A DNA stretch of 64,000 nt from a bacterium (GTDB lineage: Bacteria; Patescibacteriota; Microgenomatia; Curtissbacterales; GWA2-41-24): NCBI GenBank assembly GCA_021813945.1, contig JAKAJD010000002.1, forward strand, positions 97,343 to 161,342. The letters run 5' to 3'. Position 1 is the first letter of the stretch; the number at the start of each line of letters is the position of its first letter. This document shows, in pieces, positions 24,001 through 27,000 of this stretch. Made by a program: the position numbers.

Positions 24001-27000
24001 AGACCGAAACTTTTTCAACGGCTGCCGACAACCAAACATCTGTTGAAATCAATGTCCTTCAAGGTGAACGCCCGATGGCAGCCGACAACAAGTCCCTTGG
24101 CCGCTTCATTCTAGACGGCATTCCGCCCGCACCCCGCGGTGTCCCGCAAGTCGAAGTCACCTTTGACCTCGATGCTTCCGGCATCCTAAACGTTAAAGCC
24201 AAAGACAAAGCAACCGGCAAGGAACAATCCATTAAAATCACCGGCTCAACAGGCTTAACCGACGAAGAGATTAAGCGCATGACCAAAGAGGCCGAAGAGC
24301 ATGCCAAAGAAGACGAGGAAAAGAAGGGTGAAATTGAAACCAGAAACCAGGCCGATGCCCTAATTTACCAAGCCGAAAAAGCCCTTAAAGACGGGGGCGA
24401 CAAAGTTCCTACGGATGTTAAGGGTGAGGTTGAAGAAAAGATTAAAGCCTTAAAAGAAATCCAATCAGCAGGATCTGTTGATGAAGTTAAATCCAAAACA
24501 GAAGAACTCTCATCTGTCCTTTCCAAAATCGGCGAGTCGATGTACAAAGGCCAGGAAGCACCGCAAAGTGAGCCAACACCAGGATCAGACGGCCAAACCC
24601 CGCCATCCGATGGTCAATCAGCCCAATCCGACGACAAAGTCGAAGAAGGGGAAGTGGTCAAAGAATAATGACTATAGACTCCGAACCAGGCACTGTCCGA
24701 TCTACAGCCTCAGAAGCAGAAGCTAAATTAACGATCGCGGAAAGGCTCCAAATTCATCGAAGTAGGCGTTTGATGTCAGGTCAATCTTGGTCTGAATATT
24801 GGGGTACAGATCCAACAGAATCTCTAGCTAGAGCAAACATAAGACATGTTGATGAATTGTCAGACGGAGAATTTATAGACTTGTATTTAAAGATAGCATC
24901 CAGTTTTAAATGACCAAACTTTCTACCGACATTTTTGTCCTCTGCGATTACGCATCTGTCTCCCAAGAGCAAAAGCTTTCAATAATTGGCATTTTTGACC
25001 AGTTTTTCGTAGCTAACCTTCCCACAACCTGGCCAAAAATGTACCTGGTTGCAGTTGTTTCCGGTGAAGCAGGTAAAGAATATCCCCTTGTCTTAAAACT
25101 TCAAGCTCCGACGAATGAAGAAAACAGTAGCTTTCCGGATAAGGAATTCAAAATCACTTTAGGCCAAAACGGCAAAGCCAATGTTATGACAGAACTTGTT
25201 AATTTTCCGCTAACGCAAGCCGGAATTTACAAGATCCAGATTTTAAATGAAAAAGAAAAAGTCGGGGAGTTAGAATTTAAGGTCAATAAAACTACGGCAA
25301 CTTACGAACCGAATAAAGTTAATTAGGTCTGCAATTTTCAATTTAAAATTTGAAATTTTTACTGAGTTTTTAATGTTTAAAATTTAATTTTTAAAAATTG
25401 ATTTAAAATTAATCGATGGCTACTACACGTGATTACTACGAAATTCTTGGCGTTTCCAAAAACGCCTCGGCGGATGAGCTGAAAAAGGCTTACCGGACCC
25501 TAGCGCGAAAACACCACCCGGATGTCGACAAATCCCAAGGCGCCGAGCAAAAATTCAAGGAAATTAACGAAGCTTACCAGGTCCTTTCCGACCCCCAAAA
25601 GAAATCAGCCTACGACCAGTTCGGCCATGCCGCTTTCCAGCAAGGCGGAATGGGAAGCGCCGCAAATCAAGGCCCGTTTGGCGGATTTGGAAGCGGCCAA
25701 GGCGGATTCCGCACATACACTTGGTCATCCGGCGGCGGCCAAGGCCAAGACTTTGGCGGTTTTGCCGACCCGTTTGATATTTTCGAAGCATTTTTCGGCG
25801 GCCAGTCACCGTTTGGCCAACAGGCGCGACTTCCCCGTTACGCCATAAAAATAACTTTCGAAGAAGCAATTAGTGGTGTCCAAAAAGAAATCTCAATAGA
25901 AGGCAAAAAACAAAAGGTTAAAATCCCAGCAGGCGTGGACGACGGTTCCGAAATCCGTTTTTCAAACTATATTTTAGTTTGTGAAGTTTCCCCGAGCCAA
26001 AAATTTAGAAGAAGGGGATACGATATTGTCACAGAAAAAGAAATTTCCTATTCCCAGGCAGCTTTAGGTACAGTGGCCGACATAGAAACCGTCGAAGGCC
26101 TTGTCAAAATCCGCATTCCCGCTGGCACCCAACCCGGCACACAAATACGCTTAAAAGGCAAAGGCGTAAAGCACATCAACGGCCACGGCCAAGGCGACCA
26201 TTACGTCATCATCCGCCTCCAAATTCCTACAAAATTATCACGAGAACAGAAACGTCTTCTTGAAGATCTTGAGAATATTTCTTAACCTTACCAAACATTA
26301 CGAGCATAGATTATTGAAGCAACTGGAACTGAAAGACTTTGATGAAAAGGAAACTAAAAACAACCGTTTATTTTGACGAGCACATTCATAAATCAATAGT
26401 CGATAGCTTTAAAGATCTAAATTACCGTTGCCTTTTCATATCAAAGACAAAAAAATACGCTGGGAGGGACGAAAAAGATTATATTGCCGAAATATACTCT
26501 GAAGGGGCAATTTTTGTTACATCTGATTTAGAATTTTTCGAGTACATAATTGGCAATAAGATATTTCATTCCGGGGTCGTTTACTTCCCTTCGAAATGGG
26601 ATGACGAAACTAACTCTTTTGCCGCTAGTGGTATGGCAGGATACCTCAAAGGAACAATTGACAGACAAGGTAAAAGATCGTTAATAAATTCAGCTTTTTA
26701 CGTCGCAGACGATGGTTATCACTTAGTTGAAAACGGAAAGGATGACCTCATTATGTCTACAGATGCAATAGAAATAATGATGGACTCTTACTAAACTAAA
26801 TCTCTTCCAAGCTTAATTTTTGCTATAATTCCCGTGTGAAATTTAAAAAGATTCTTGTAACAGGCTTTTCAAAAGCGGAACTTTCCGAAAAAAGCCAGAA
26901 AGAACTGTCTAAATTATCAGACAATATCGTTTTCTCTGCTTTAGACGATCCGAATTTACCAAAAGAACGAGCAGATGCCGATTGTCTTTTAGCCAAATTT

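Follow-up and report, generated by a model that had tools for sequence, protein, structure and literature searches.

We analysed a 64 kb stretch (hereafter the window) of the genome of an uncultured member of Candidatus Curtissbacteria (Candidate Phyla Radiation (CPR)/Microgenomates, Patescibacteria). On its + strand, positions 21474–26285 hold, in order, a promoter with a CIRCE operator (controlling inverted repeat of chaperone expression), hrcA, grpE, dnaK, two small open reading frames (ORFs) referred to here by their lengths as ORF81 and ORF138, an 89-nt spacer and dnaJ (Table 1). With ORF138, a catalogued and uncharacterised protein family, DUF6941, occupies a conserved and previously undescribed position in a known type of operon.

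The two small genes are joined tightly to their neighbours. The dnaK stop codon (TAA, 24666–24668) shares its last A with the ATG of ORF81 (24668–24670; TAATG), and the ATG of ORF138 (24910–24912) overlaps the ORF81 stop codon (TGA, 24911–24913; ATGA); both overlaps had been pointed out in an original prediction made on this DNA, and both can be read directly in the sequence. That prediction had also described the hrcA–grpE–dnaK–dnaJ order as otherwise canonical, which Pfam and NCBIfam matches to the four genes bear out. The best start of dnaK is the ATG at 22761, which follows GGAGG; the alternative GTG at 22698, taken by the ORF finder, would overlap grpE.

Table 1. Features of the chaperone locus in the window, and ORF families lying between dnaK and DUF6941 in related loci (designated by L numbers)
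Feature	Position or loci	Strand	Description
Sigma-70-type promoter and CIRCE	21474–21510	+	-35 box TTGACA 21474–21479; -10 box TAATCT 21497–21502
hrcA	21529–22251	+	Pfam HrcA (E 6.7e-21) and HrcA_DNA-bdg; short 240-aa form
grpE	22265–22759	+	Pfam GrpE (E 5.8e-37)
dnaK	22761–24668	+	635 aa; NCBIfam PRK00290, 948 bits, from residue 22 of the longer GTG ORF
ORF81	24668–24913	+	81 aa, 9.2 kDa, acidic (pI 5.3), predicted helical
ORF138	24910–25326	+	138 aa, DUF6941 (PF22091); predicted 8-strand Ig-like beta-sandwich
Spacer	25327–25415	+	89 nt, GC 0.15; -10-like TAAAAT at 25404–25409, 6 nt before the dnaJ ATG
dnaJ	25416–26285	+	Class B (type II), no zinc finger; HPD-bearing J domain, G/F region, C-terminal domains I/II
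Slot family 1			ORF81 family
Slot family 2	L010, L032		60-aa ORF
Slot family 3	L035, L062		59-aa ORF
Slot family 4	L040		62-aa ORF
Slot family 5	L018, L020, L025		126–174-aa group

DUF6941 between dnaK and dnaJ

The product of ORF138 had been thought to belong to no recognisable family. This is not the case: it matches DUF6941 (PF22091) with an E-value of 3.6e-19 and a score of 69.8 bits (cut-off 27), and its residues 8–125 correspond to model positions 2–124/125, so that the match spans the model end to end. At least 194 homologues at 64–93% identity all carry PF22091, and those named by source come from Candidatus Curtissbacteria; the word-indexed search used, with the best 120 matches listed, covers close homologues and is not systematic for distant members. 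ORF138 has no sequence relative in the PDB and no match in NCBIfam, PHROG or PADLOC. DUF6941 is a Pfam family of undescribed function, and no mention of it or of PF22091 was found in the literature searched. Neither DUF6941 nor ORF81 has a paralogue elsewhere in the window or in the related loci.

Related loci were assembled from two sources. Homologues of ORF138 together with a genome scan covering 20 GTDB species gave 26 loci. A further 80, including an outgroup whose DnaK and DnaJ are 68–74% and 53–59% identical to those of the window, came from a metagenome scan in which the DnaJ C-terminal domain served as the query. Each of the 20 GTDB species-representative loci found has DUF6941 between dnaK and dnaJ, as do about 86% of the unique ingroup (Curtissbacteria-like) loci sampled. 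The distance from the dnaK stop to the DUF6941 start is at most 15 nt in 29 of 47 unique loci; in L001 a spacer parts the two genes, but there DUF6941 stands 7 nt from dnaJ. The flanks, by comparison, vary: of the 26 loci, four share the second gene 3' of dnaJ in the window and none shares the first. A divergent DUF6941, 33% identical to that of the window and scoring 70 bits in Pfam, follows dnaK by 10 nt in L093 (3369–3761). The dnaK-coupled position is seen only in the Curtissbacteria clade. As an additional observation, L093 encodes a 111-aa coiled-coil protein (3758–4120) between DUF6941 and dnaJ, with weak matches to XhlA-, prefoldin- and GrpE-like coiled coils.

The protein changes slowly. 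Between the window and L002, the ratio of nonsynonymous to synonymous substitution rates (dN/dS) is 0.07 for DUF6941, compared with 0.08 for GrpE, 0.05 for DnaJ and 0.03 for DnaK, and its clade-wide identity of 62–93% is like that of GrpE and DnaJ. By these measures DUF6941 is under strong purifying selection, at a pace about that of GrpE.

Two motifs are conserved, CDYA-x-VS-x-E-x-KLSI-x-GIFD and G-x-NG-x-x-N. The first extends to distant relatives in L093 and in two IMG/VR phage contigs, L112 and L114, all of which score above the Pfam DUF6941 threshold. The four proteins have CDYA-x-x-S-x-x-x-KL-x-I-x-G-x-F in common; all four are identical at C-D-Y-A, S, K-L, G.F and P within the N-terminal part, and at G.Y close to the C-terminus. 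An AlphaFold2 model built with 44 homologues is all-beta, with eight strands, at moderate confidence (pLDDT 67, pTM 0.60), and residues 15–38, the most conserved segment, are its least confident part. Foldseek searches with this model returned from the PDB generic Ig/Fn3-like domains alone (TM 0.35–0.5), and from BFVD, as the best match, an uncharacterised Caudovirales protein of 138 aa (TM 0.62). We predict an Ig-like beta-sandwich from the model. Two more specific assignments were considered. A diverged copy of the DnaJ C-terminal beta-sandwich was rejected, with an hhalign probability of 0.6%. A small heat-shock protein (sHSP), p23 or other chaperone fold found no support, as Foldseek with this moderate model gave a GH3 C-terminal domain, PA1606 (3n6y) and RhoGDI only. 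The profile and structure comparisons suggested in the original prediction have thus supplied a family and a predicted fold for ORF138, and no similarity to a co-chaperone.

The phage members keep different company. In L112 an HD_4 phosphohydrolase gene is followed by DUF6941 (36% identical to that of the window), one gene of no known kind and then the large terminase gene; in L114, DUF6941 lies near a 452-aa ORF that we read as portal-like and that has no Pfam match. The family members thus share CDYA..S.E.KLSI.GIFD across the window, L093, L112 and L114, whereas the phage genes stand beside a hydrolase and terminase or in a region read as structural, and not beside chaperones. With 89.7 bits against the Pfam model, the protein of L114 scores above the Curtissbacteria proteins. 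By tblastn, DUF6941 was not found in plasmid or phage GenBank sets. A further detail of L112 (280–1124; IMGVR_UViG_3300031671_000090) is that the stop codon of the HD_4 gene (RelA/SpoT-type HD) overlaps the DUF6941 start (ATGA), 5' of the terminase genes; this pair may be a module for manipulating the host stress response.

ORF81 and the variable slot before DUF6941

ORF81, in agreement with the original prediction, belongs to no recognisable family: it has no match in Pfam, NCBIfam, PHROG or PADLOC, and a profile search found no similarity to CbpM or to any other PDB sequence. Its homologues are few. A word-indexed search returned the query itself only, an exhaustive phmmer search of 1.84 billion representatives two true homologues, and a profile search of a 5.8-billion-cluster set exactly five proteins; a sixth member, in L059, came from a local jackhmmer search over the fetched loci. 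Besides the window, the members are found in L002/L003/L007, L027, L028 (two tandem copies) and L059, five lineages in all. All six lie between dnaK and DUF6941, most overlapping or abutting their neighbours, and the L059 copy about 10 nt from each. The tandem copies of L028 are 66 and 73 aa long, and the window protein looks like a mosaic of the two, like the 73-aa type in its N-terminal part and like the 66-aa type at its C-terminus. AlphaFold2, run with three sequences, gave a helical model of low confidence (pLDDT 58, pTM 0.30).

The homologues keep an open frame at 42–60% identity, with dN/dS of 0.14–0.37 and pN well below pS, which argues that ORF81 is a real, fast-evolving gene. Its dN is 3.5–10 times that of the neighbouring genes, its G+C content at third codon positions (GC3) is 0.28 against 0.40–0.50 in the neighbours, and at least three independent sequencing runs yielded exactly this protein. 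Both ORFs, which the prediction had treated as genes, are accordingly real by their dN/dS and under purifying selection.

Seen across the 47 unique loci, the junction between dnaK and DUF6941 is a variable slot. The two genes adjoin directly in 29 loci, are separated by a gap-filling ORF in 12, and by a non-coding spacer in about six. Nearly always, a slot ORF abuts or overlaps both of its neighbours, dnaK and DUF6941. The slot ORFs make up at least five families, among which no relationship could be detected (Table 1). We considered whether they could be one divergent family and rejected this: hhalign of the ORF81 family against the L018/L020/L025 group gave nothing, and jackhmmer recruited L059 only. 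A C-terminal helix motif apparently shared by slot ORFs, M-[ST]-x-x-E-R-x-x-L-Y-x-K-L-A, was likewise discarded, a motif hidden Markov model (HMM) having ranked them no higher than background ORFs. The spacers of L001, L009 and L021 were examined as decayed ORF81 genes, and none aligned to ORF81.

Two weak similarities outside the operon are recorded here. The ORF81 core SGQSWSEYWGTDP is weakly like a repeat in protein P0124 (phmmer E 1.8e-4, motif SGxxWxExWxTDP), a likeness of doubtful significance; P0124 is a 1095-aa protein with ResIII and Helicase_C domains whose C-terminal part consists of many repeats of about 53 aa (...ITSGTQWEEQWETDPEL...YPEWKGWRHF) that belong to no Pfam family. P0125 is also a weak phmmer match of ORF81.

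Control of the operon and the class of its DnaJ

The CIRCE element, TTAGCACTC-N9-TATTGCTAA, lies at 21484–21510 and overlaps the promoter TTGACA-17-TAATCT. Measured against the consensus TTAGCACTC-N9-GAGTGCTAA, it has two mismatches and is the sole match within the window, where 0.03 are expected by chance. The arrangement of TTGACA and CIRCE is kept 5' of hrcA in most related loci, some of them with only one mismatch; the CIRCE-like operator noted earlier at this place is in this way upheld, being unique in the window and conserved with its promoter in most relatives. With an operator at the promoter and an hrcA gene behind it, the locus is by sequence an HrcA–CIRCE regulon. HrcA has about 340 aa in well-studied bacteria. 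The window protein has 240 aa and matches the Pfam model of the HrcA C-terminal domain only from model position 95 onward; by this comparison a large internal part of the usual HrcA is missing from it. The HrcA proteins of related loci align with it along residues 1–240.

Compared with the Gram-positive HrcA/CIRCE operons of the order hrcA–grpE–dnaK–dnaJ, the window has the same gene order, a CIRCE overlapping the promoter and hrcA first. It differs in carrying two extra genes between dnaK and dnaJ, an HrcA about 100 residues shorter, and a DnaJ that lacks the zinc finger and whose gene has an apparent -10 box of its own immediately 5' of the ATG.

There is no terminator-like site between dnaK and ORF138, where the overlaps leave no space, and no canonical terminator was called in the window. 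Since ORF81 and ORF138 lie inside the hrcA–grpE–dnaK unit behind a conserved CIRCE and promoter, their co-expression with dnaK under HrcA is a reasonable inference; the heat-shock co-regulation proposed for the two genes is reasonable on the same grounds, namely a shared unit too tightly packed for a terminator or promoter, and a conserved CIRCE. We infer from this layout that the HrcA-controlled unit comprises hrcA–grpE–dnaK–(ORF81)–DUF6941.

The dnaJ gene may be served differently. In most relatives (L002–L026) the spacer between DUF6941 and dnaJ ends in a TATAAT-like box, 6–10 nt ahead of the dnaJ start codon, and has no Shine–Dalgarno sequence; dnaJ of the window has none either. In many of the spacers, long inverted repeats rich in AT follow closely on the DUF6941 stop. 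These features suggest that dnaJ has an additional, nearly leaderless promoter and start of its own besides the HrcA unit. In other bacteria, dnaK and dnaJ are known to be expressed differentially by way of a long intergenic region (PMC12077118).

Three related loci carry a conserved element of about 95 nt before dnaJ that the window does not have (L008, 4514–4612; L009, about 4523–4620; L018, 4437–4529). It separates what looks like a former dnaJ start (TATAAT-N8-ATG...GAC) from a new one, ATGAAAAAAGAC-TAYTAY. Its components are UUAGCCCCGCAG, an AU-rich hairpin and CGAGGAGCGCAGGC, and in the RNAfold structure GCCCC is paired with GGAGC of the Shine–Dalgarno-like sequence. In L018 the 12-nt ATGAAAAAAGAC is duplicated, with one copy on either side of the element, and two of the three loci have an open upstream reading frame of 33 codons. 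The element may be a leader resembling an RNA thermometer, or else a miniature insertion element.

DnaJ, the sole J protein in the window, matches Pfam DnaJ at residues 6–67 and DnaJ_C at 141–271 only, with no DnaJ_CXXCXGXG match. Its translation has HHPD, a G/F stretch and a single Cys, and at the site of the type I zinc finger it reads ...KEISIEG-KKQ-KVKIPAGV; all related DnaJ proteins, of 280–289 aa, have the same G-K-K/R junction and the same architecture. The description of a DnaJ with J domain and G/F region and without the CxxCxGxG zinc finger is thus confirmed by Pfam and by the single Cys, and by its domain layout the protein is a class B (type II) J protein. Of the earlier label "class B/CbpA-like", the first half stands and the second fits less well, since Thermus DnaJ and housekeeping DnaJ are closer to the protein than CbpA is: it scores 252 bits on TIGR02349 and 213 on PRK14299, against 119 on the CbpA model PRK10266 (all NCBIfam), and its PDB matches are 6jzb, 6psi and 4j80, the last two being full-length matches to Thermus DnaJ.

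The rest of the region is soon told. The gene 3' of dnaJ (26339–26794) has no matches other than weak ones, namely DUF5615 (E 0.002) and, from PADLOC, PDC-M01B (E 0.005); it is absent 3' of dnaJ in all related loci examined. A search with Rfam gave nothing but a sub-threshold snoRNA match inside dnaK.

A possible accessory of DnaK or a passenger of its operon

Small partners of zinc-finger-less J proteins have been described in two other systems. In Thermus, where the gene order is dnaK–grpE–dnaJ–dafA, the dnaK operon encodes DafA, a protein of about 8 kDa. The DafA of Thermus thermophilus forms a DnaK3–DnaJ3–DafA3 complex with DnaK and a zinc-finger-less DnaJ, from which substrate displaces it (PMC3727329). 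ORF81 resembles DafA in being a protein of similar size (81 aa) in a dnaK operon with a zinc-finger-less DnaJ, one that matches Thermus DnaJ over its full length (4j80, 6psi, PRK14299); we take this as resemblance and not as membership. ORF81 differs in being sporadic within its own clade and in lying between dnaK and dnaJ, unlike DafA, with which it was compared by description only. ORF138, a predicted beta-sandwich twice the size of DafA, differs further.

The second precedent, CbpM of gamma-proteobacteria, is encoded in the same operon as CbpA. This small Escherichia coli protein binds the J domain of the class B protein CbpA and blocks its co-chaperone activity (PMC4063869). It offers a model of a small operon partner that tunes a zinc-finger-less DnaJ; however, CbpM is related to MerR-type regulators, and the window DnaJ is nearer to housekeeping DnaJ than to CbpA. 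Neither ORF81 nor ORF138 gave a MerR, MerR_2 or CbpM signal in Pfam or in PDB sequence profile searches that included 3ucs, and by these profiles neither is a CbpM/MerR-like protein.

The explanation we prefer, tentatively and at somewhat less than even confidence, is that DUF6941 is a clade-specific, dispensable accessory linked to DnaK, and that ORF81 is a lineage-specific occupant of the variable slot. DUF6941 would be made along with DnaK, in roughly proportional amounts, under the control of HrcA. As a small Ig-like beta-sandwich, it might bind DnaK, DnaJ or their substrates through the invariant N-terminal motif. ORF81 would be an add-on of the dnaK–DUF6941 unit in some lineages, possibly a modulator like DafA or CbpM, and not a core component. 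This explanation is supported by the clade-wide position of DUF6941 abutting dnaK, by its GrpE-like constraint, by the divergent copy at the same place in L093, by the conserved promoter and CIRCE with no terminator called inside the unit and, for ORF81, by its standing as a real gene with six members in one position; by analogy, DafA and CbpM also argue for it. The degree of linkage to dnaK differs between the genes: DUF6941 is linked in about 86% of ingroup loci, in no outgroup locus and in neither phage contig, and ORF81 in all six members from five lineages.

Several observations weigh against such a role. In seven ingroup loci dnaK is followed by dnaJ after 9–109 nt and DUF6941 is absent within 4.5 kb; these loci are scattered over at least four places on a neighbour-joining tree of DnaJ (no bootstrap support), which indicates that DUF6941 is dispensable. 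All outgroup loci lack it in the dnaK–dnaJ interval despite their zinc-finger-less DnaJ, so that the loss of the zinc finger predates the insertion of DUF6941 and is independent of it, and DUF6941 was probably added in the ancestor of the clade. In the outgroup loci L107 (2376–4145) and L109 (2320–4089) a 589-aa ORF, identified by reading its sequence as glmS (glutamine–fructose-6-phosphate aminotransferase), lies between dnaK and the zinc-finger-less dnaJ; the interval therefore tolerates unrelated genes, and position alone does not imply a chaperone function. Other outgroup intervals contain a 169-aa ORF of no known kind (L104) or a 348-aa ORF on the opposite strand (L098). The two phage contigs have no chaperone gene in the sequence examined. 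The C-terminal tail of DnaK, considered as a segment that might co-vary with DUF6941, reads V(Q/E)EGEVVKE whether or not DUF6941 is there and is near-identical in the outgroup; by this comparison the tail is unaffected by the presence of DUF6941. As for ORF81, the closest relative, L001 (DnaK 95%, DUF6941 93% identical), does not have it; a 116-nt AT-rich spacer that cannot be aligned with it takes its place, and elsewhere the slot holds unrelated ORFs by sequence. The synteny comparison that had been proposed as a check consequently came out divided, with ORF138 a clade-wide fixture and ORF81 sporadic. Finally, 17 of 52 same-strand adjacent gene pairs in the window, by a rough gene call, overlap or lie at most 10 nt apart. 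Close packing is usual in this compact genome, and the start/stop overlaps alone are therefore weak evidence of a functional link.

Much of this is what one would expect if both proteins were passengers in a permissive, well-expressed interval, held there by inertia or by a suitable expression level, which we regard as a serious possibility with a probability of roughly one third. The glmS and other ORFs in outgroup intervals, the repeated loss of DUF6941 within the ingroup, the at least five unrelated families accepted by the slot and the tight spacing of about a third of same-strand pairs all speak for it. So does the composition of other operons. The dnaK operon of Bacillus subtilis carries non-chaperone genes 3' of dnaJ. 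More widely, dnaK/dnaJ operons vary among species in the other genes they carry (PMC12077118). Nor is either ORF tied to co-chaperones by fold or domain, with no match at E <=1 in Pfam or NCBIfam to a J domain, GrpE, BAG, TPR, sHSP alpha-crystallin or the DnaJ C-terminal domain; the proposal of novel co-chaperones or clients in the original prediction keeps the standing of a conjecture. Mere passengers would, however, hardly be expected to keep their position in about 86% of lineages in which GrpE is just about 61–65% identical and flanking genes turn over, nor at 33% identity in L093, nor to go on adjoining dnaK or dnaJ in almost every arrangement observed.

A bolder form of the accessory explanation would make DUF6941 an unrecognised partner of Hsp70/DnaK, possibly derived from phage and fixed behind dnaK, and the junction a hypervariable cassette slot, in which unrelated small proteins, including the ORF81 family, join the translationally coupled chain as lineage-specific modulators of the DnaK system; we consider this doubtful. 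Less probable again is that DUF6941 is of phage origin with a phage-related role, for example in manipulating, or protecting against, infection-related stress or exclusion, and was domesticated in the dnaK operon as a platform for its expression, the slot ORFs being fast-evolving partners in conflict. Its occurrence in L112 beside HD_4 and terminase genes and in L114, whose protein is nearer to the Pfam centre, is consistent with such an origin, as are the Caudovirales protein as best structural match, the hypervariable slot with the high dN of ORF81, and the lack of DUF6941 in the outgroup. On the other hand, neither ORF has a PADLOC or PHROG match, the Curtissbacteria DUF6941 evolves slowly (dN/dS 0.07), unlike typical conflict genes, and the two viral contigs are the only ones found and establish no direction of transfer. 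That ORF81 is a chance open frame in a spacer, as its absence from L001, its lack of family, its low GC3 and its low-confidence model might suggest, is very improbable and in practice refuted by six homologues kept open at 42–60% identity with dN/dS of 0.14–0.37, by its exact fit to the gap with overlapping start and stop, and by its recovery as an identical protein from at least three sequencing runs.

Were both proteins passengers, the locus would be a caution against inferring function in a compact genome from synteny, even across a whole clade, or from start/stop overlap inside a chaperone operon. If, as we tentatively prefer, DUF6941 works with DnaK, it would represent a novel type of Hsp70 accessory, one from the CPR/Patescibacteria, whose reduced proteostasis machinery is almost unstudied. 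It would also give a first functional handle on a Pfam family found in phages as well, and the variable slot would be a natural experiment in the recruitment of small proteins to a chaperone operon.

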